A DNA stretch of 7,800 bases from a virus (Duplodnaviria > Heunggongvirae > Uroviricota > Caudoviricetes): the IMG/VR virus record IMGVR_UViG_2671180405_000013; one strand, written 5' to 3'. The notes below the pieces were generated by a model. It had not been told where the DNA came from. It did no database searches and saw only the letters and a list, made by a program, of their open reading frames with translations. Of the stretch, positions 1-7,342 are shown piece by piece. How positions within the stretch are numbered: the first letter of the stretch is position 1; every line of letters begins with the position of its first letter. A program made the translations under genes and the position numbers.

Positions 1-9
1 GTTTCTACA

Positions 10-32
10 ACCCGCCGCCGAGCGGGTTTTTT
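10..32 (+). terminator. Intrinsic terminator, tR'-like (copy 1)
   Basis: GC stem acccgc/gcgggt around loop cgccga, then TTTTTT. Window positions 1-33 match 2225-2257, which lies directly downstream of a PR'-like promoter. Confidence 0.55.
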
Positions 33-152
33 ATGACTGAAATCGCGTCAGTACAGTAAACGCGCTGGTGGCGGTGAATACCTGTCTTTCAGCTTGCTGG
101 CTTTTTCGACAAGAGTTATTGGTGTGTCACGTTAACCGGAAAAGGAAAAGAC

Positions 153-350
153 ATGCTAAAACAGCAGGATATGACAGAAACCGCCAGAGTGGTGTTTAAT
201 GAATTAAGCGTTACCGAACCGGCGACAGTCGGGGAGATAGCGCAGAATACTTACCTTTCACGCGAACGCTGCCAGTTAATACTGACCCAGCTGGTTATGG
301 CGGGTCTGGCAGACTATCAGTTCGGTTGTTACAGACGCCTTCCGCAGTGA
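153..350 (+). CDS. Small hypothetical protein, 65 aa, possible winged-helix DNA-binding fold
   Basis: ATG at 153 preceded by AAGGAAAAG Shine-Dalgarno-like sequence. The segment TVGEIAQNTYLSRERCQLILTQLVMAGLADY resembles small wHTH regulators; that is inference from the translation only. Confidence 0.5.
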   Translation: MLKQQDMTETARVVFNELSVTEPATVGEIAQNTYLSRERCQLILTQLVMAGLADYQFGCYRRLPQ

Positions 351-360
351 AGGCTTTTTT
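337..360 (+). terminator. Intrinsic terminator overlapping the stop codon of the 153-350 ORF
   Basis: Stem gccttc (337-342) / gaaggc (349-354), 6-nt loop, then TTTTTT at 355-360. Confidence 0.45.
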
Positions 361-377
361 ATTTGTGGTAAATGGGC

Positions 378-408
378 GGCTGGTGGGTGTTAGGGGCACC
401 CACCAGCC
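378..408. promoter_or_regulatory. Perfect 12-bp inverted repeat (hairpin) in the methyltransferase leader
   Basis: ggctggtgggtg (378-389) pairs perfectly with cacccaccagcc (397-408) around a 7-nt loop; no T-tract follows. A second 7-bp hairpin lies at 450-468. Confidence 0.4.
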
Positions 409-500
409 ATCTGCTCATGCGTTGGGTTCACAAGCAAACCTCAGGCCCACTGCTTTGCGCAAAAGCAGAATGAGCCTATCAGAGACAGGCTTAATGATCC

Positions 501-1559
501 ATGCTTAATGCTGTAAAAATATCCAGTTGTGAGTTAATCAACGCCGACTGCCTGGAATTTATCCGGTCGTTACCCGAAAATTCTGTTGACCTGATAGTCA
601 CGGACCCGCCGTACTTTAAAGTGAAGCCTGAGGGCTGGGATAACCAGTGGAAGGGCGACGATGATTACCTGAAGTGGCTGGACCAGTGTCTGGCGCAGTT
701 CTGGCGGGTGCTGAAACCTGCCGGAAGTCTTTACCTGTTCTGTGGTCATCGCCTGGCATCTGATATCGAAATCATGATGCGTGAACGCTTCAGTGTGCTG
801 AACCATATTATCTGGGCGAAGCCGTCCGGACGCTGGAACGGATGCAACAAGGAAAGCCTGCGGGCGTATTTCCCCGCCACAGAGCGCATTCTGTTCGCGG
901 AACATTATCAGGGGCCGTATCGTCCGAAAGATGCCGGGTATGCGGCGAAGGGCAGTGCACTGAAACAGCATGTGATGGCCCCGCTGATTTCTTACTTTCG
1001 TGATGCGCGAGCTGCCCTGGGGATAACGGCAAAACAGATTGCAGATGCCACAGGAAAGAAAAACATGGTGTCGCACTGGTTCAGTGCCGGTCAGTGGCAG
1101 TTGCCGAATGAAAGCGATTATCTGAAATTACAGGCGCTGTTTGCCCGGGTGGCAGAAGAGAAGCATCGGCGTGGTGAACTGGAAAAGCTCCACCACCAGC
1201 TGGTGGATACGTATACCTCACTGAACCGGCAGTATGCGGAGCTGCTGAGTGAATATAAACATCTGCGGCGGTATTTTGGCGTGACGGTGCAGGTGCCGTA
1301 TACCGATGTGTGGACGCATAAACCGGTGCAGTTCTATCCCGGGAAACATCCGTGCGAAAAACCGGCAGAAATGCTGCAGCAGATAATCAGCGCTAGCAGT
1401 CGTCCGGGTGACCTGATTGCAGATTTTTTCATGGGGTTGGGTTCGACAGTGAAAGCGGCACTGGCGCTCGGGCGTCGTGCAATTGGCGTTGAGCTGGAGA
1501 CTGAACGTTTTGAGCAGACGGTTCGGGAAGTACAGGATTTAGTCAGCCAGAACGGATGA
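501..1559 (+). CDS. DNA methyltransferase, beta-class amino-MTase (N6-adenine or N4-cytosine), orphan
   Basis: 352-aa ORF with motif IV DPPY near the N-terminus (LIVTDPPYF) and motif I FxGxG near the C-terminus (DFFMGLGST), the beta-class order. No restriction endonuclease gene is adjacent in the window. Confidence 0.85.
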   Translation: MLNAVKISSCELINADCLEFIRSLPENSVDLIVTDPPYFKVKPEGWDNQWKGDDDYLKWLDQCLAQFWRVLKPAGSLYLFCGHRLASDIEIMMRERFSVLNHIIWAKPSGRWNGCNKESLRAYFPATERILFAEHYQGPYRPKDAGYAAKGSALKQHVMAPLISYFRDARAALGITAKQIADATGKKNMVSHWFSAGQWQLPNESDYLKLQALFARVAEEKHRRGELEKLHHQLVDTYTSLNRQYAELLSEYKHLRRYFGVTVQVPYTDVWTHKPVQFYPGKHPCEKPAEMLQQIISASSRPGDLIADFFMGLGSTVKAALALGRRAIGVELETERFEQTVREVQDLVSQNG

Positions 1560-1599
1560 TATTGAAGAATTAATTACGCGTCGTTATTATGCGGCTCCC

Positions 1600-1675
1600 G
1601 GCCCTTTAGCTCAGTGGTGAGAGCGAGCGACTCATAATCGCCAGGTCGCTGGTTCAAATCCAGCAAGGGCCACCA
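1600..1675 (+). tRNA. ileZ: tRNA with anticodon CAU (Ile2/Met type), ileZ-like
   Basis: Hand-folded cloverleaf: acceptor ggccctt/aagggcc, U8, D stem gctc/gagc, anticodon loop ctCATaa, T-loop ttcaaat, discriminator A, encoded CCA. Confidence 0.85.
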
Positions 1676-1682
1676 TCACATA

Positions 1683-1759
1683 CCGCCATTAGCTCATCAG
1701 GAAAGAGCGCCAGCCTTCGAAGCTGGCTGCGCGGGGTTCAAGTCCCCGATGGCGGTCCA
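1683..1759 (+). tRNA. argN: tRNA-Arg, anticodon UCG, argN-like
   Basis: Acceptor ccgccat/atggcgg, D stem gctc/gagc, anticodon stem ccagc/gctgg with loop ctTCGaa, T stem cgggg/ccccg with loop ttcaagt, encoded CCA. Confidence 0.8.
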
Positions 1760-1772
1760 TTATCTGCATCAT

Positions 1773-1849
1773 GCGTTGTTAGCTCAGCCGGACAGAGCAA
1801 TTGCCTTCTAAGCAATCGGTCACTGGTTCGAATCCAGTACAACGCGCCA
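1773..1849 (+). tRNA. argO: tRNA-Arg, anticodon UCU, argO-like
   Basis: Acceptor gcgttgt/acaacgc, anticodon stem attgc/gcaat with loop ctTCTaa, T-loop ttcgaat, encoded CCA. Confidence 0.85.
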
Positions 1850-1863
1850 CACTTATTTTCCCT

Positions 1864-1889
1864 GGCTCGCTTTTGCGGGCCTTTTTTTT
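1864..1889 (+). terminator. Intrinsic terminator downstream of the tRNA cluster
   Basis: Stem ggctcgc/gcgggcc (one U-G pair), loop tttt, followed by 8 T. Confidence 0.6.
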
Positions 1890-1892
1890 AAA

Positions 1893-2152
1893 TGTCTCAC
1901 AATTCAGACGGTTGACAGTTGTCTGTTTTGCGGGGAGTTTGTTAAAAGAAACTGGCATGGTGAATCCCCCTGTGCGGAGGGGCAATCAGCGAGTAGGTAT
2001 ATGGGATAATCGCGGATTCAGGTGCTGGTACTGAATTCACCGGGAGGCACCCGGCATCATGCAATGGCACATAGCGCCACTCTCCAGCCCTCTCCGGAGG
2101 GGCTTTTCTGTGCCGGATACATCACAGTTTCTGGAACCTTAGGTACTACAGT
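1893..2152 (+). repeat. Repeat family X, copy A (terminator-capped structured element; candidate sRNA unit)
   Basis: Positions 1917-2152 are identical to 4215-4450. Contains the TCACAATTCAG motif, a TTGACA box, closing helix catggtg (1956-1962) / catcatg (2055-2061), internal hairpins, and a terminator hairpin at 2087-2108 followed by TTTTCT. Confidence 0.7.
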
Positions 2153-2158
2153 NCTAGG

Positions 2159-2186
2159 TTGATTTTTCCGGAATCTGTGGTAAATT
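2159..2186 (+). promoter_or_regulatory. PR'-like late promoter (sigma70, extended -10)
   Basis: -35 TTGATT (2159-2164), 16-bp spacer, TGg + TAAATT (2178-2186), the same -10 hexamer as phage lambda PR'. A -10-like TAACTAT lies in the initial transcribed region and terminator copy 2 sits about 45 nt downstream, matching the lambda PR' to tR' short-transcript layout. Confidence 0.5.
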
Positions 2187-2234
2187 CGTCATAACTATGG
2201 GCGTTTTATGCCTGACGTTAGAAGAGTTTCTACA

Positions 2235-2257
2235 ACCCGCCGCCGAGCGGGTTTTTT
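2235..2257 (+). terminator. Intrinsic terminator, tR'-like (copy 2)
   Basis: Same hairpin and T-tract as at 10-32. Confidence 0.55.
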
Positions 2258-2296
2258 ATTGCGGAATTAATTACGGACCGTTATTATTCTGCTCCC

Positions 2297-2372
2297 GGCC
2301 CTTTAGCTCAGTGGTGAGAGCGAGCGACTCATAATCGCCAGGTCGCTGGTTCAAATCCAGCAAGGGCCACCA
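2297..2372 (+). tRNA. ileZ: tRNA with anticodon CAU (Ile2/Met type), second copy
   Basis: Same sequence as 1600-1675 with the same cloverleaf and encoded CCA. Confidence 0.85.
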
Positions 2373-2379
2373 TCACAAA

Positions 2380-2459
2380 CCGCCATTAGCTTATCAGGAA
2401 GAGCAGACGACATGATAACAGGGTTGTTGGTGCGGGGGCGGGTCCCCGATGGCGGTCCA
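2380..2459 (+). pseudogene. Degenerate tRNA (argN remnant)
   Basis: Acceptor stem ccgccat/atggcgg and the D-arm are retained, but the anticodon arm and T-arm are replaced by sequence that does not form a cloverleaf and has no T-loop. Confidence 0.5.
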
Positions 2460-2472
2460 TTATCGGTATTCA

Positions 2473-2549
2473 GCGTTGTTAGCTCAGCCGGACAGAGCAA
2501 TTGCCTTCTAAGCAATCGGTCACTGGTTCGAATCCAGTACAGCGCGCCA
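2473..2549 (+). tRNA. argO: tRNA-Arg, anticodon UCU, second copy
   Basis: Matches 1773-1849 except one acceptor-stem change (a to g at 2542) that leaves a U-G pair; anticodon loop ctTCTaa. Confidence 0.85.
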
Positions 2550-2659
2550 TATTCATTCTTCCAGATTCCTTCCGGCAGAGCCTTATACTGAAATATACCT
2601 GGCTCAGGATATTGTTGAAAATATTTTATGTTTGTCAAAAATAAAAGTTCTGTTAAGTA

Positions 2660-3013
2660 TTGATTGAGTGTTTGTTATACGGTCTAATGGTTTTTTCAGC
2701 ATTAAATATTTATCATTCATATGGTGTGGGTAGAGTGAATATTGATGAGGCGTCGGGGTGTTTCATCCTTAGGCAGCGTATTGATATAGTCAATGCAGCA
2801 CGAGCAAAGGCCTTCAGCCGTTTGACAGTTTTGTTCTGTACTCCTGATCGTCTTTCGGGAAGAGACGTTATTATTCTGAATAGTGATGCTATACAGAGGG
2901 TTTGCGATGAGTTCATGGTTGCTAATTCAGAATTATTTGCTCTTGTTCAGGAGTACAACAGAATAGCCAGGACCTGTGGTATGGATGAACTTCGGATTAC
3001 TCATCTGGGGTAG
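2660..3013 (+). CDS. Hypothetical protein, start uncertain (TTG 2660, ATG 2687 or GTG 2735)
   Basis: 354-nt ORF downstream of the second tRNA cluster. No convincing Shine-Dalgarno before any candidate start and no family recognised from the translation. Confidence 0.35.
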   Translation: MIECLLYGLMVFSALNIYHSYGVGRVNIDEASGCFILRQRIDIVNAARAKAFSRLTVLFCTPDRLSGRDVIILNSDAIQRVCDEFMVANSELFALVQEYNRIARTCGMDELRITHLG

Positions 3014-3204
3014 ATACATATCTGGATTATCACCTGTTACGGTAAAAAGTGATTGCTTACTGTTTTTGTGAATGGCATTGCAGCAGCCGGATAATGTCAG
3101 TGCTGGCTGACGGTGTGCTGGTGGCGGGTGTGGTGGTTGTTGCTTTCCCGTTGCTGAAAAAGAAAACGCCAGACTGTTAGCCGGGTATCAGTTAGCGGGA
3201 GAAA

Positions 3205-3428
3205 TTTTTAAATACTTCACAATTCAGGCGGTTGACTGTTGTCTGGTTTGCGGGGAGTTTGTTAAAAGAAACTGGCATGGTGAATCCCCCTGTGCGGAGG
3301 GGCAATCAGCGAGTAGGTATATGGGATAATCGCGGATTCAGGTGCTGGTACTGAATTCACCGGGAGGCACCCGGCACCATGCAATGGCACATAGCGCCAC
3401 TCTCCAGCCCCTCTCCGGAGGGGCTGTT
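3205..3428 (+). repeat. Repeat family X, copy B
   Basis: Same element as copy A with point differences: TTGACT box, closing helix caccatg (perfect pairing), terminator stem gcccctc/gaggggc 7 bp with loop tccg. Confidence 0.7.
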
Positions 3429-3457
3429 TATATTGATTTTGTCAGATGTGAGTAAAC

Positions 3458-3491
3458 TCCTTATGGACTTTGTTGTTTTAGTCCATAAGGA
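3458..3491. repeat. Perfect 11-bp inverted repeat at the left edge of the AT-rich island
   Basis: tccttatggac (3458-3468), 12-nt loop, gtccataagga (3481-3491). It overlaps the last codons of the minus-strand ORF and has no T-tract on either side. Confidence 0.6.
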
Positions 3492-3796
3492 CATATTTGC
3501 AGAGTGCAACGGTTATTAAAGCATTCATTCAATACGTTATCTGTATTTGTAGGGCATTCCTGGCTATTTTTGATTGAATTCCAGAATGTTTTATTGAATG
3601 GTACTACGTTGTAAATGGTTACAGGTAGCACTTTGTTATTGAGCATGATGCCTGTGTGAGTCAGTGTAAATATACTTTCAGGAGGTAAGAAAGCATCCGA
3701 TTGATACCAGATTATTAATTTTATTTTACTCCATATGACTGAAAAAGATATTCCGCATGATGGCTGGATAACTGTATCAATCACAATCCACTTCAT
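3461..3796 (-). CDS. Hypothetical Cys/Trp/Asn-rich protein, 111 aa, island cargo
   Basis: ATG at 3796-3794 preceded by AAGGA with a 6-nt spacer. A 111-codon open frame in very AT-rich DNA is unlikely by chance. Candidate promoter on the minus strand: -10 TATACT (plus 3837-3842), -35 TTTACA (plus 3858-3863), 15-bp spacer. Confidence 0.5.
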
Positions 3797-4056
3797 TTAG
3801 TTTCCTTGTTTATGCCTTGCTGGTGATGTTCTGAAAAGTATAAATGATATTTTTGAATGTAAACCATAGAGCAGAATTATTTTTCTGATGTTGTTTATTG
3901 TTTATTTAAATGCAGGGTGGTTTATATCTCGTCTTGTAGTTTATCCATGCATATCTGCTTGATAATCAGGTTTTTATTTAAGGTATGGTTTTGTGTTTTT
4001 TCTGTATTACATGTCAGGTATTTTAAAGAATTATTTTTCAGATGGTGGAAAGAACC

Positions 4057-4083
4057 ATGGCATTTAAACACTATGATGTTGTC
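4057..4083 (+). CDS. 5' fragment of a second nanS-p-like gene, truncated by the N gap
   Basis: atggcatttaaacactatgatgttgtc encodes MAFKHYDVV, identical in protein to the start of the 5123 ORF, with two synonymous differences and a different AT-rich upstream region. Confidence 0.5.
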
Positions 4084-4214
4084 NNNNNNNNNNNNNNNNN
4101 NNNNNNNNNNNNNNNNNNNNNNNNNNNNNNNNNNNNNNNNNNNNNNNNNNNNNNNNNNNNNNNNNNNNNNNNNNNNNNNNNNNNNNNNNNNNNNNNNNNN
4201 NNNNNNNNNNNNNN
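4084..4214. other. Assembly gap (131 N)
   Basis: Uninterrupted run of n. Confidence 1.
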
Positions 4215-4450
4215 AGTTGTCTGTTTTGCGGGGAGTTTGTTAAAAGAAACTGGCATGGTGAATCCCCCTGTGCGGAGGGGCAATCAGCGAGTAGGTATAT
4301 GGGATAATCGCGGATTCAGGTGCTGGTACTGAATTCACCGGGAGGCACCCGGCATCATGCAATGGCACATAGCGCCACTCTCCAGCCCTCTCCGGAGGGG
4401 CTTTTCTGTGCCGGATACATCACAGTTTCTGGAACCTTAGGTACTACAGT
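4215..4450 (+). repeat. Repeat family X, copy C (5' end lost in the gap)
   Basis: Identical to 1917-2152. Confidence 0.75.
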
Positions 4451-4596
4451 ATCAGTCAGGGTGCTATATTTTCAGATGTGATGAAAGCCTGTCAGCAGGC
4501 AGGGCGTATCGGAAATGACCCAGTAGAGAAAACGTTGACTCAGATACCGGTGCTGAGTTACCGGGAAACCGGCATCACATGACCGCTATCCTTCCA

Positions 4597-4623
4597 GGCC
4601 CATCCGCTCCGGTGGGCCTTTTT
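4597..4623 (+). terminator. Intrinsic terminator closing a partial X-like unit (4535-4623)
   Basis: Stem ggcccatc/gg(t)gggcc of 8 bp including one U-G pair, loop cgctcc, then TTTTT. The preceding ggtgctgagttaccgggaaaccggcatca aligns with the hairpin region of repeat X. Confidence 0.55.
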
Positions 4624-4660
4624 ACTGCAGAAAACAGGTTCCCCGTTAAATGCTATGTTG

Positions 4661-4895
4661 CTCACAATTCAGTAAGTTGACAGTTGCCTGTCAGACTGGG
4701 CATTTGTTAAAAAAATTTCGCATGGTGAATCCCCCTGAGCGGAGGGGCGACTGGTGACGGTATAATCTCTGATTATCAAAACGAGAATGACGCGGGTTTA
4801 GTGGCACCGGGCTGAACTCACCGGGAGGCACCCGGCACCATGTGCATGATGATACAGATACGCGGCTTTAGCCCCTCTCCGGAGGGGTTTTCTTG
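4661..4895 (+). repeat. Repeat family X, copy D (divergent), ending about 230 nt upstream of nanS-p
   Basis: Retains TCACAATTCAG, the TTGACA box, closing helix catggtg (4721-4727) / caccatg, hairpin ccgggaggcacccgg and terminator cccctc/gagggg + TTTTCTT (4871-4895); sequence between the helices has diverged. Confidence 0.65.
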
Positions 4896-4900
4896 TGGGC

Positions 4901-4929
4901 AAAAAAAGCCCGCGCTGGGAGACGCGGGC
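4901..4929 (-). terminator. Intrinsic terminator readable on the minus strand
   Basis: On the minus strand, stem gcccgcg/cgcgggc (7 bp) with loop tctcccag is followed by TTTTTTT (plus-strand A7 at 4901-4907). Confidence 0.4.
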
Positions 4930-5122
4930 GGCAAGGAATAAACAATAAAACGTGAAGTAATATTTCAGCTGGCGAATAATACCCCATAGTAATCACTCTG
5001 CGCAACTGCGCGGTCTTTTTCGAATTGCGGGCTGTCGTCTCTCTTCTGCCATTGTCCTGTAACTTCCGGACTTCAGCCCGCTCCTTATTTTACTCACAAT
5101 ATTATCCCGGCCGGGAGGATTC

Positions 5123-6976
5123 ATGGCATTTAAACACTATGACGTGGTCAGGGCGGCATCGCCGTCAGACCTTGCGAAACGACTGACACAAAAACTGAAG
5201 GAGGGCTGGCAGCCGTTTGGTAGTCCGGTGGCCATAACCCCTTATACCCTGATGCAGGCGATTGCAGCAGAAGGTGATGTGGTCGTCAGTGGTGCAACTG
5301 AGCCGGAGTGGTACTACGTCATCGTACTGGCCGGGCAATCCAATGCCATGGCTTACGGTGAAGGTCTTCCGCTTCCGGATTCATACGATGCGCCCCATCC
5401 GCGCATTAAGCAACTGGCCCGTCGTAACACAGTGACTCCCGGTGGTGAAGTATGCGTATTTAACGACATCATTCCTGCTGACCATTGTCTGCATGATGTT
5501 CAGGATATGAGTACGATTAACCATCCCCGGGCTGACCTGAGCAAAGGGCAGTACGGCTGTGTCGGACAGGGCTTACATATTGCCAAAAAACTGCTTCCGT
5601 ATATCCCTAATAATGCGGGGATCCTGCTGGTACCATGCTGTTGTGGTGGTTCGGCATTCACCCAGGGCACGGAGGGGACATTCAGCGAGTCCACGGGGGC
5701 CAGTCAGGATTCGGCTCGCTGGGGAGTGGGTAAGCCGTTATATCAGGATCTGCTTTTCCGCACGAAGGCAGCATTGCAGAAAAACCCGAAAAACGTTTTG
5801 CTGGCGATATGCTGGATGCAGGGGGAATTCGATATGACGAATGCCAGTTACGCCCAGCAGCCAGCAGCATTTCTTGCAATGGTACAGCAGTTCCGTGCTG
5901 ACCTTGCCGGGCTGGCGGCGCAGTGTCACGGTGGAAGTCCGGCATCAGTCCCCTGGATTTGTGGCGACACGACATACGCGTGGAAACAAGAACACGGTAC
6001 GCAATATGAAGTGGTATATGGTGCATATAAAGGTAAAGAATCCCAGCAGATTTATTTTGTTCCCTTTATGACCGATGGTAGCGGAGTTAATACACCGACA
6101 AACAACCCGTCAGAAGATCCTGATATTGCCGGGTCTGGTTATTACGGTTCGGCATCCCGAACGAACAAAAACTGGGTATCATCAAATCGCCCGACGCATT
6201 TCAGCTCATGGGCGCGTCGTGGCATTATTCCCGATCGTATGGCAACTGCTATTCTGAACGTAGCCGGTCGCACCTTAGCCTTCATTAGTGGTAAGGCACC
6301 GGAAATCAAACCCTCGCCCGGCGGCGACACGCCATCGGGGCCGTCTGAAGATGCATCCATACGCACAATCTCCCTGTTGCCGACAGCCGGAGACGCTGCT
6401 GCGCAGGGCTGGAGCATTAAGAATGGCGGAGTTCAGTTGTCAGATGGTGTATTTAAGATCACCAAGCAGAGCAATAAAGCCTGGTCCCTGACGCGCCCGG
6501 TGGATGACGCAGTCTCCCTGCTGACACGGGGTGGCAGACTGAGCTGTAAGTTTCGACTGTCAGGCGCACTGACCAACAACCAGTTCGGTCTGGGAATTTA
6601 TCTGTATACCGATGTAGCGTTACCTGACGTCGTGGCGATGACCGGGACTGGTAACCCGTTCCTGATGTCGTTCTTCACCCAGACCACAGACGGCAAACTG
6701 AATCTGATGCATCACAAGAAAGCAGGAAACACAAAGTTGGGCGAGTTCGGGAATTACAGTAACGACTGGCTGACGCTGGAGCTGGTGTTCACCGCCGGCA
6801 GTGCCACGGTTACTCCGAAACTGAATGGAGTGGCTGGCCCGGCATTCCAGGTCATAAAAGACAGTCTGACACTGGGGCTGAATGCGCTGACGCTGACGGA
6901 TATTACCAAAAATGCAGCGTATGGCGTTGAGATAGAAAGTCTGGTGCTGGAGATAAATGCACCGGCATCATCATAA
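5123..6976 (+). CDS. nanS: Prophage sialate O-acetylesterase, NanS-p type (N-terminal DUF1737-like segment plus SGNH/SASA esterase domain)
   Basis: 617-aa ORF with strong Shine-Dalgarno GGGAGGA 5 nt upstream of the ATG. N-terminus MAFKHYDVV and the GQSN esterase motif (VLAGQSNAMAYGEG) match the 9-O-acetyl-sialate esterases found downstream of stx in EHEC prophages. Confidence 0.8.
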   Translation: MAFKHYDVVRAASPSDLAKRLTQKLKEGWQPFGSPVAITPYTLMQAIAAEGDVVVSGATEPEWYYVIVLAGQSNAMAYGEGLPLPDSYDAPHPRIKQLARRNTVTPGGEVCVFNDIIPADHCLHDVQDMSTINHPRADLSKGQYGCVGQGLHIAKKLLPYIPNNAGILLVPCCCGGSAFTQGTEGTFSESTGASQDSARWGVGKPLYQDLLFRTKAALQKNPKNVLLAICWMQGEFDMTNASYAQQPAAFLAMVQQFRADLAGLAAQCHGGSPASVPWICGDTTYAWKQEHGTQYEVVYGAYKGKESQQIYFVPFMTDGSGVNTPTNNPSEDPDIAGSGYYGSASRTNKNWVSSNRPTHFSSWARRGIIPDRMATAILNVAGRTLAFISGKAPEIKPSPGGDTPSGPSEDASIRTISLLPTAGDAAAQGWSIKNGGVQLSDGVFKITKQSNKAWSLTRPVDDAVSLLTRGGRLSCKFRLSGALTNNQFGLGIYLYTDVALPDVVAMTGTGNPFLMSFFTQTTDGKLNLMHHKKAGNTKLGEFGNYSNDWLTLELVFTAGSATVTPKLNGVAGPAFQVIKDSLTLGLNALTLTDITKNAAYGVEIESLVLEINAPASS

Positions 6977-7061
6977 AAAGTGAGCCAGCCAAATGGAAGG
7001 TATCGTTAAACTCACCGGTAGTGTCAGTGGGTCGTCTGAGATGCCTGCATGAGTTATCAGA

Positions 7062-7091
7062 GCCATCAGTACTTAACTGGTGGCTTTTTTT
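7062..7091 (+). terminator. Intrinsic terminator between nanS-p and the holin
   Basis: Stem gccatcag/ctggtggc (8 bp, one U-G pair), loop tacttaa, followed by TTTTTTT. Confidence 0.6.
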
Positions 7092-7126
7092 ATTGTTGTC
7101 AGCTTCCGGATAACGGGAGACGGGGT

Positions 7127-7342
7127 ATGTACCAGATGGAAAAAATCACAACAGGTGTGTCATACACCACGTCAGCGGTGGGAACGGGCTACTGGTTCCT
7201 GCAGTTGCTGGACAGGGTTTCCCCGTCTCAGTGGGCGGCAATAGGCGTGCTGGGGAGTCTGCTGTTTGGGCTGCTGACATATCTGACTAACCTGTATTTC
7301 AAAATCAGAGAGGACCGTCGTAAGGCTGCACGGGGAGAGTAA
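7127..7342 (+). CDS. S: Class II holin, S21-type (pinholin), dual-start motif
   Basis: 71-aa product [26 protein letters not shown]...[20 protein letters not shown] closely matches the phage 21 S holin as remembered. Met1 (7127) and Met4 (7136) form the antiholin/holin dual start; GGGAGACGGGG precedes it. The track ORF from 7049 is overextended and runs through the terminator at 7062-7091. Confidence 0.85.

Follow-up and report, generated by a model that had tools for sequence, protein, structure and literature searches.

STnc100 is a gammaproteobacterial small RNA (sRNA) first reported in Salmonella (Rfam RF02076). The family is among the most often annotated of all sRNA families, with no assigned function (PMC9029176). 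Escherichia coli EDL933, for example, carries 11 STnc100 copies, all transcribed, mostly with low ribosome coverage, and one verified by Northern blot (PMC5331693). Here we examine a 7,800-nucleotide (nt) stretch of viral DNA (the window; IMG/VR record IMGVR_UViG_2671180405_000013), which is the late-gene leader of a lambdoid prophage of the Shiga toxin (Stx)-phage type from E. coli. A first-pass annotation had noticed there a family of structured elements, each capped by a terminator, and had proposed that they encode prophage sRNAs. Judged by sequence and fold, the repeated elements are copies of the already catalogued STnc100/PasD sRNA family: the finding is real, and it is not new. Its value as a discovery is small, since Rfam has included the family for years, its E. 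coli O157 copies are already profiled, and relatives are known to be sRNAs that bind Hfq.

EcOnc27 of strain Sakai (sRNA103 of EDL933) lies just downstream of stx2B, overlaps an STnc100 annotation, is bound by Hfq, and has been verified by Northern blot (PMC7873438, PMC12711010). It forms a dyad with AsxR, and such dyads are present between the late promoter and the lysis genes in at least eight Sakai prophages (PMC7873438). Moreover, single-nucleotide polymorphisms (SNPs) in EcOnc27/sRNA103 predict hemolytic uremic syndrome (HUS) in a machine-learning study (PMC12711010). PasD1 and PasD2, from enteropathogenic E. coli (EPEC) strain E2348/69, are abundant RNAs with Northern bands, Hfq-dependent stability, and targets identified through RIL-seq, in which interacting RNAs are ligated and sequenced (PMC8550237). 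The PasD seed, UGUGAG, sits between the core and the terminator (PMC8550237, supplement), and PasD has been described as an STnc100 relative (bioRxiv 10.64898/2026.05.13.724894).

The window holds units here termed A, B, C, P, and D (Table 1). EcOnc27/sRNA103 resembles unit D in lying between a toxin or transfer RNA (tRNA) module and nanS-p and in being a member of an sRNA dyad; D shares 82–88% identity with the element of Stx2 phages, and it too is paired with a convergent neighbor on the minus strand. The present locus differs in having three tandem units (A-P-D) and in having no stx genes within the window. PasD1 and PasD2 share with the window units both fold (P1, P2, a pseudoknot, and P4) and position: antiterminator gene Q, an open reading frame (ORF), DUF3927, the RNA, and then esterase or holin. 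In the window, B follows a DUF3927 ORF and D directly precedes the esterase gene. However, PasD1 and PasD2 score only 33–34 bits with a covariance model built from the window copies, their P5 is reduced, and the window copies have no BLAST match to the PasD loci (L123 5144–5332; L124 4247–4436).

The lambda 6S RNA and StxS are, like the units, short, constitutive, terminator-ended RNAs of the late-operon leader, and StxS binds Hfq (PMC7873438). They belong, however, to a different transcription unit: here the late promoter pR' and its terminator tR' lie directly after Q, apart from the STnc100 units. RydC is an Hfq-dependent sRNA whose pseudoknot body is thought to protect the RNA and present the seed. 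It differs in its length (~64 nt) and 5' seed, and is not known to have sequence or architectural homology with the STnc100 family.

Family membership, structure, and pseudoknot

Units A, B, C, and D match the full-length RF02076 model, with the same helices, far above its gathering score of 47 bits (Table 1). Their E-values, 4e-37 to 1.5e-27, are far beyond chance. Unit P also matches, below the gathering score. No Rfam hits to AsxR or AgvB were found in the window, and a model search with filters off detected no further hidden copies there, the next best hits reaching at most 13 bits and matching the terminator only. Two differences from RF02076 matter below: the Rfam model starts 29 nt upstream of P1, and its cmscan structure line has no pseudoknot.

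The motifs on which the family was first recognized are where they had been placed: TCACAATTCAG at 1897, 3217, and 4662; CCGGGAGGCACCCGG at 2040, 3360, 4338, and 4821; and, in the closing helix, CATGGTG at 1956, 3276, 4254, and 4721 with CA(C/T)CATG at 2055, 3375, 4353, and 4836. (The 5' motif had been ascribed to each copy; A, B, and D have it, and C lacks it because an N-run cuts it off.) The pair changes noticed earlier are likewise exact: the compensatory change from A-T at 2016/2036 to G-C at 4796/4817; the change from C-G at 2019/2033 to T-G at 4799/4814; and closing-helix variation among A (CATCATGC), B (CACCATGC), and D (CACCATGT). Aligned and folded together, the four distinct window copies show covarying helices with nine compensated pairs. 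The first-pass annotation recognized a structured RNA from compensatory changes alone, and the locus is a clean positive control for that kind of reading.

A, B, D, and P served to build the covariance model. The loci to be searched were collected by matching the P5 sequence (pattern CACCGGGAGGCACCCGG) in one genome per species; the pattern also had chance matches in unrelated high-GC Actinobacteria and other phyla, and those loci were left out. The model made 101 matches in 75 sources, with about 70 Enterobacterales loci, from genera that include Salmonella, Citrobacter, Enterobacter, Klebsiella, Raoultella, Kosakonia, Pantoea, Erwinia, Rahnella, and Rosenbergiella. All of the distant homologues collected and re-scanned with Rfam were also called STnc100.

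In the model-fitted alignment of 97 distinct homologues, 94.5% of cells fall in standard pairs, versus 36–50% when partners are slid by one to three columns; 30 of 33 pairs have changed on both sides; and no shuffle reached any of the observed measures. A structure-blind MAFFT alignment of 29 cores gives a similar picture, with P1 90% paired, the outer five P4 pairs 96% paired, and many compensations. G-U pairs are frequent (one P4 pair is GU in 47, AU in 31, and GC in 9), which places the structure on the plus strand, along which the late genes are transcribed. Neither P2 nor P5 covaries; both are conserved at the sequence level. P5 conservation is inflated in our own set, because the loci were fished with the P5 sequence; in the independent Rfam consensus, P5 is invariant too. 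Both in our set and in the Rfam consensus, near-invariant nucleotides also occupy junctions and loops (GGUGAAUC; GCGG of the P2 loop; UCACCGGGAGGCACCCGGCACC).

Thermodynamic stability was tried as a further line of evidence and was uninformative (z = 0.15, −1.6, and −2.4). The minimum-energy fold of unit P recovers its structure (z = −2.4), and that of unit D recovers P1, P4, P5, and the terminator (z = −1.6).

Reading the cores side by side revealed a pseudoknot. A segment of 6–9 nt, starting 2–5 nt after P2, is complementary to the start of the P4 apical loop, and the pairing sequence varies from species to species: CUGGUG/CACCGG in D; UAUCGG/CCGGUG in P; AAUGAUC/GAUCAUU in PasD2; and, in homologous loci, AAGUCACA/UGUGACUU (L107), ACUGGAUA/UAUCCAGU (L013), and GAGCCACAA/UUGUGGCUU (L113). 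It is present also in unit B and in loci L003–L126.

The pairing was evaluated by a register-free comparison of native with swapped partners, in a full set of 87 and a non-redundant set of 71. The longest complementary run averaged 6.25–6.28 nt for native partners and 4.5 nt (sd 0.12) for swapped ones; none of 2000 permutations reached the native value. Mean duplex energy was −8.3 kcal/mol, versus −4.3 after swapping, and runs of at least 6 bp were found in 73–76% of native pairs and 19% of swapped pairs in both sets. Control segments from the same RNA gave runs of 4.3 and 3.8 nt, versus 5.97 nt for the native pairing (29 RNAs long enough). A fixed-register count in the MAFFT alignment gave 46.5% paired cells and did not exceed the slid controls, because the linkers vary in length by 1–2 nt. 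The pseudoknot is absent from the cmscan structure line for RF02076, and the word is absent from the 2026 preprint on the family, the two sources that this check covered. The pseudoknot, the subfamily represented by P, and the tandem A-P-D triplet may not have been described previously.

Transcription signals and the true number of units

Promoter-like −35/−10 pairs (score of at least 8/12) end 2–16 nt before P1 in 31.5% of members, versus 5% at random positions in the same loci. The block GTT(T/A)(A/G)TTAAAA, 7–8 nt before GCAUGG, is common to A, D, locus L095, and PasD2. For PasD2, the reported 5' end (741157) is the base immediately preceding P1, at a distance of 7 nt from a −10 hexamer upstream of it, TAAAAA, that aligns with TAAAAG/TAAAAA in the window. 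Because of this 5' end and the shared −10 block just before P1, candidate starts are placed near 1954–1955 (A), 3274–3275 (B), ~4476 (P), and 4719–4720 (D). The TTGACA box of the first-pass annotation is there as described, and is a plausible −35 element of a second, overlapping candidate promoter (TTGACA, 17 nt, GAGTTT).

The PasD2 comparison and the promoter position together suggest that the first 29 positions of the RF02076 model are probably promoter DNA, not RNA. STnc100 positions 5–15 have been predicted to pair with stxB (PMC12370729), a prediction that may therefore concern untranscribed sequence. In Salmonella LT2, both sigma-70 and sigma-54 give chromatin immunoprecipitation-exonuclease (ChIP-exo) signals at STnc100 promoters (PMC10794520).

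At the other end, a terminator scan confirmed that every unit finishes with a terminator-like hairpin (Table 1). Of the 97 members, 46 have a strict intrinsic terminator no more than 120 nt from the core (median distance, 26 nt), versus 8% of controls; the terminator finder missed some imperfect terminators.

A motif farther upstream, (C)TCACAA(TTCAG), occurs about 50 nt before P1 at 1897–1907, 3217–3227, and 4662–4672, more weakly at 4417–4430, and recurs in several genera (for example, loci L008, L048, L116, and L121). The motif has a core, CUCACAA, that is exactly complementary to UUGUGAG in the PasD seed region, perhaps by chance.

The window is a scaffold rather than one unbroken piece of a genome: two alternative prophage paths, both lying between the Q-proximal terminator and the esterase start, stand in it one behind the other. 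Positions 1917–2152 and 4215–4450 are 100% identical, as are 1–34 and 2226–2259. In E. coli ATCC 11775 (L002), window positions 2–2152 map to 4086–6236 and positions 4216–5342 to 6001–7128, so that the two blocks overlap by 236 nt on one unbroken stretch. C is thus a duplicate of A, and the five copies originally counted include A twice, a consequence of the scaffold joins. None of 5,426 complete E. coli genomes has contiguous sequence across the junction at 2153, whereas more than 350 carry 4215–5200 (C, P, D, and the start of the esterase gene) in one piece, at 99.6–99.7% identity.

The block between the joins, 2154–4083, opens with a second late promoter and terminator (pR'/tR') and closes with the first esterase codons. 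It matches a complete genome (L001) with a different layout: Q, an ORF, a methylase, two tRNAs, DUF3927, one STnc100, IraM, and the esterase. Because the block fits this alternative, a second prophage is very probably the source of copy B. Within one prophage, the true order is tRNAs, A, P, D, and esterase, with three diverged units in tandem over ~950 bp. (More generally, copies can be overcounted where a scaffold is joined at repeated modules of prophages.)

Unit P had been taken for a partial unit at 4535–4623. It is instead a full unit at ~4462–4627, in which P1, P2, P4, P5, the terminator, and an extended −10 are all present with changed sequence. P-type copies are present in 673 of the 5,426 complete E. 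coli genomes. A-type copies are found in 54% of complete E. coli genomes, with as many as 12 sites in a single genome. The RNA is very abundant, and one copy adjoins stx2, where SNPs are linked to HUS risk (PMC12711010).

With the count amended, the central proposal of a structured, terminator-capped family of prophage sRNAs is supported by the Rfam match, by helix covariation, by the lack of a common ORF, and by reports on relatives. The helix-compensating changes on the plus strand also agree with the original view that this is no selfish repeat.

Candidate functions and their alternatives

Each unit is probably an independently transcribed moron, an sRNA gene comprising a conserved 5' domain with a pseudoknot, a 3' seed that varies, and a terminator; its product would act through Hfq in trans. 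The window copies themselves show the family membership, the structure, the motifs of promoters and terminators, the position, and the orientation; in them, a variable linker precedes a U-tailed terminator. Expression, Hfq binding, and seed position come from papers on relatives, and by analogy the window copies would be expressed, bind Hfq, and pair through seeds. We infer for them the same mechanism, as well as read-through under Q control and a stabilizing or scaffold role for the 5' domain.

The proposed unit would be a self-contained moron in the late-operon leader, downstream of Q-pR'-tR' and the phage tRNAs and upstream of nanS-p and holin-lysozyme-Rz. A sigma-70 promoter (−10 TAAAAG/TAAAAA; extended −10 in P) would start the RNA within a few nucleotides of P1. 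The predicted product, ~150–175 nt, would comprise three parts: the conserved 5' domain of ~105 nt; a copy-specific linker of 20–30 nt; and an intrinsic terminator with its U-tail. The 5' domain, closed by P1 and containing the sequence-conserved hairpins P2 and P5, the covarying P4, and the pseudoknot, would serve as a scaffold and perhaps protect the 5' end. The linker just upstream of the terminator would be the seed, and the U-tailed terminator would recruit Hfq; this module would bind Hfq and base-pair with host and prophage mRNAs, as mapped for PasD. Because the linker differs between copies and would act as the seed, different seeds would be presented on one scaffold. In the lysogen, with the prophage repressed, the units would be transcribed separately and end at their own terminators. 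Upon induction, Q-modified RNA polymerase from pR' would read through all of them. The conserved 5' domain and the variable linker offer concrete handles for mutational tests.

Several observations weigh against this account. Folded by itself, copy A is no stabler than its shuffled versions (z = 0.15). A strict terminator is missing from about half of the distant homologues, and some of these lead straight into an ORF; eight KdgM-type porin genes and one lipoprotein gene are among the ORFs concerned. In the RNA regions of the window copies, the PasD seed UGUGAG is absent. For STnc100 proper, the reported effects are only those on fimZ and espA upon overexpression (PMC7873438). For this strain and these exact copies, RNA-level behavior is taken from relatives. 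Finally, a pseudoknotted domain of 105 nt is far more structure than a seed-plus-terminator sRNA needs, so trans-pairing leaves the most conserved part of the RNA unexplained.

This last point bears on one alternative. The ~105-nt 5' domain could be an autonomous RNA module, spread across Enterobacterales prophages, plasmids, and chromosomal loci, with Hfq seed function as an add-on; we regard this as a tentative possibility with a modest chance of being correct. If so, an activity of its own (protein or ligand binding, or action in cis upon the late transcript) would explain why prophages retain as many as a dozen copies in one genome. A related version, that the domain is the functional module (acting as decoy, sponge, or sensor by binding a protein, a small molecule, or another RNA) and the Hfq seed is secondary or copy-specific, is rather unlikely. 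The near-invariant nucleotides in junctions and loops and the covarying pseudoknot are what such a module would show; some matches are core-only, tandem arrays of four to five copies occupy a Pantoea plasmid, and the domain occurs in many genera, also at non-prophage loci. However, it has no known partner, its relatives are Hfq-bound, the PasD pairing region lies outside the core, and P5 conservation is inflated by P5-based fishing.

Could the units be cis-acting leaders (riboswitches or attenuators), in which the terminator is a conditional platform for esterase, holin, or porin expression? The layout of promoter, conserved aptamer-like domain, variable linker, terminator, and gene resembles that of a transcriptional riboswitch; in several distant members, which lack a terminator, an ORF begins 30–200 nt past the core; and eight orthologous loci lie upstream of a gene for a 233-residue protein that by eye looks like a KdgM-family porin. 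The idea is nonetheless improbable, because the downstream genes share no functional theme: porin, holin, flagellin, a Rha-like gene, esterase, small phage ORFs, and another copy. Moreover, A, P, and D are three full tandem units, each with its own promoter and terminator, and the E. coli products accumulate as discrete Hfq-bound RNAs (PMC5331693, PMC8550237).

Still less probable is function at the level of DNA or transcription, with stacked terminators insulating and silencing the lysis genes in the lysogen, the blocks acting as recombination joints, and the RNA a by-product. At least seven plus-strand terminator-like hairpins do lie between pR' and the holin gene in the window; the repeats are also where the scaffold breaks fall and where the two prophage layouts diverge; and A-type copies are as widely scattered within genomes as noted above. 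Against this, compensatory changes, strand-specific G-U pairs, and a covarying pseudoknot denote selection on RNA structure, beyond any on a terminator or on DNA identity, and each unit keeps its own promoter.

The element might instead be the terminated leader RNA of the late promoter, made from pR' to tR' in a Q-dependent way as a counterpart of lambda 6S RNA or StxS. In many prophages it lies between Q and the holin gene, 170–310 nt after Q, and its size, 150–190 nt, is similar to that of lambda 6S RNA. However, in six prophages a separate promoter directly follows Q (TTGATT/TTTACT ... TAAATT/TAATTT, then 6 nt and AACGATGGG, presumably the sigma-dependent pause element of lambda pR'), with a terminator 60–80 nt beyond that promoter and then an STnc100 unit with its own promoter. 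This arrangement held in every prophage examined, and in the window tR' (9–34) and pR'/tR' (2159–2259) are far from A, P, and D; since pR' and tR' are separate and the STnc100 unit follows with its own promoter, this reading has next to no chance and was rejected.

A small protein-coding gene, as implied by the short hypothetical ORFs that RefSeq and phage annotations put over the element and by open stretches of 36–59 codons in each copy, is about as implausible: the longest open frame shifts relative to the P5 anchor (frame 0 in A and B, frame 1 in D, and 36–37 codons only in P), no frame common to the copies was found, the substitutions are helix-compensating, and most EDL933 copies have low ribosome coverage (PMC5331693), so that a conserved ORF was rejected, in agreement with the first-pass annotation.

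Genomic context and neighboring features

The order Q, STnc100 (one to three copies), and holin-lysozyme, always co-oriented, was found in 24 foreign loci with recognizable Q and/or holin, lysozyme, and Rz. The same order is seen in E2348/69, where the matches coincide with PasD1 and PasD2, in complete genomes, and in an isolated phage. In the isolated phage the sequence is tRNAs, STnc100, NanS, and holin, as for unit D. In complete genomes, Q lies just upstream of window position 1.

Table 1. Features of the 7,800-nt window, in order of position (motif coordinates are given with the motif)
Feature	Position	Strand	Details
tR' terminator, second copy	9-34	+	Terminator scan
DNA methyltransferase gene	501-1559		
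tRNA cluster	1600-1849		Met/Ile2-like CAT, Arg TCG, Arg TCT
Unit A	1897-2112	+	RF02076 match 1926-2115, 123.6 bits; own model 193.7 bits; consensus fold; terminator scan
Unit A, upstream motif	1897-1907		TCACAATTCAG
Unit A, candidate promoter 1			TTGACA 1912-1917, 17 nt, GAGTTT
Unit A, candidate promoter 2			TTGTCT 1919-1924, 18 nt, TAAAAG 1943-1948
Unit A, helices			P1 1955-1962/2055-2062; P2 1967-1971/1978-1982; P4 2014-2021/2031-2038; P5 2040-2044/2050-2054
Unit A, pseudoknot		+	AUCAGC 1985-1990 (3' of P2) with GCUGGU 2024-2029 (P4 apical loop)
Unit A, variable linker	2063-2085		
Unit A, terminator	2086-2104		Followed by T-tract
Single n	2153		Scaffold join; contig end of unit A and block starting with pR'
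Late promoter pR'	2159-2186	+	TTGATT 2159-2164, 16 nt, TAAATT 2181-2186; not part of the family
pR' pause motif	2193-2201	+	AACTAT-GGG, 6 nt after TAAATT; here AACTATGGG
tR' terminator	2234-2259	+	35-60 nt downstream; terminator scan
Second tRNA cluster	2297-2549		Partly decayed
DUF3927 small ORF	3049-3180	+	Upstream of unit B; label from RefSeq annotation of matching complete genome
Unit B	3217-3432	+	RF02076 match 3246-3435, 132.4 bits; 96% identical to A; same layout in L001
Unit B, terminator	3405-3426		
Anti-adapter IraM homologue	3461-3796	-	Downstream of unit B; label from RefSeq annotation of matching complete genome
N-run	4084-4214		Gap or masked stretch between esterase start (ATG 4057) and interior of unit C
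Unit C	4215-4410	+	RF02076 match 4224-4413, 123.6 bits; duplicate of A through contig-end overlap; 5' end cut by N-run
Unit C, terminator	4384-4402		
Unit P	~4462-4627	+	RF02076 match 4452-4625, 30.1 bits, E 0.0013; complete diverged member
Unit P, extended −10	4462-4470		TGCTATATT
Unit P, helix P1			AUGUGAUG 4476-4483 with CAUCACAU 4573-4580 (others: GCAUGGUG/CA(C/U)CAUGC)
Unit P, other helices			P2 GCCUG/CAGGC (others: CCCCU/AGGGG); P4 CUCAG/CUGAG; P5 CCGG-GAAA-CCGG
Unit P, terminator	4596-4619		
Unit D	4662-4897	+	RF02076 match 4691-4900, 161 bits, the best; directly upstream of nanS-p-type esterase gene
Unit D, upstream elements			TCACAATTCAG 4662-4672; TTGACA 4677-4682; TTGCCT 4684-4689, 18 nt, TAAAAA 4708-4713
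Unit D, helix P1			4720-4727/4836-4843
Unit D, terminator	4870-4889		
Convergent sRNA-like element	4901-4955	-	Terminator 4929-4908
nanS-p-type SASA esterase gene	5123-6976		
Holin-lysis region, first ORF	7049-7342		97 residues; follows esterase gene
Terminator-like hairpin	7059-7092	+	12-bp stem and T-run, inside 5' end of the 97-residue ORF

The convergent element downstream of unit D shares a terminator region with it, and the two form a dyad in the manner of EcOnc27 and AsxR. It resembles an EPEC sRNA candidate from the E2348C_1409/1408 intergenic region (sequence from the PMC8550237 supplement), with three mismatches and two single-base gaps in a local alignment of 54 columns. That candidate reportedly had the most RIL-seq partners among accessory-genome sRNAs. 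The spacer between esterase and holin genes in the window contains no minus-strand sRNA of the PasA/PasC type, and has no similarity to the PasA or PasC regions of E2348/69.

A short pR'-tR' transcript in the window would be the counterpart of StxS. The Q protein has 273 residues, and the combination of this type of Q with a lambda-like pause site may be noteworthy.

Some homologues lie outside recognizable prophages, next to ORFs that by eye include dcp, a porin gene, and plasmid-region genes. In eight species of Kosakonia, Klebsiella, and Enterobacter (L064, L067, L059, L020, L083, L094, L111, and L050), the core is 80–200 nt upstream of a gene for 233 residues on the same strand, by eye a KdgM-family porin, with no strict terminator between core and gene. 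This suggests a version of the STnc100 element in the 5' untranslated region. The KdgM-family porin NanC and the esterase NanS share an operon in E. coli, an association that echoes the position of unit D upstream of nanS-p.

Family members also stand in tandem arrays, three to five per array and spaced 200–350 nt apart, at L082 (895–1987), L062 (3117–4484), L079 (6326–7014), and L075. The array of Pantoea sp. App145 is on a 400-kb plasmid (L082, L062), and one in Superficieibacter is directly upstream of the holin gene.

The second tRNA cluster of the window lacks the middle tRNA-Arg(TCG) of the first, and positions 2373–2472 are decayed. ARAGORN calls the CAT-anticodon tRNA Met, and RefSeq labels it Ile in complete genomes; presumably it is a lysidine-modified tRNA-Ile2, like ileZ of Stx phages. 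Public records covering A and D (for example, NZ_CP033092 2714416–2714541 and PV189400) carry short "hypothetical protein" or pseudogene ORFs, with STnc100 unannotated. The hairpin inside the first ORF of the holin-lysis region is also kept in the E2348/69 prophages.

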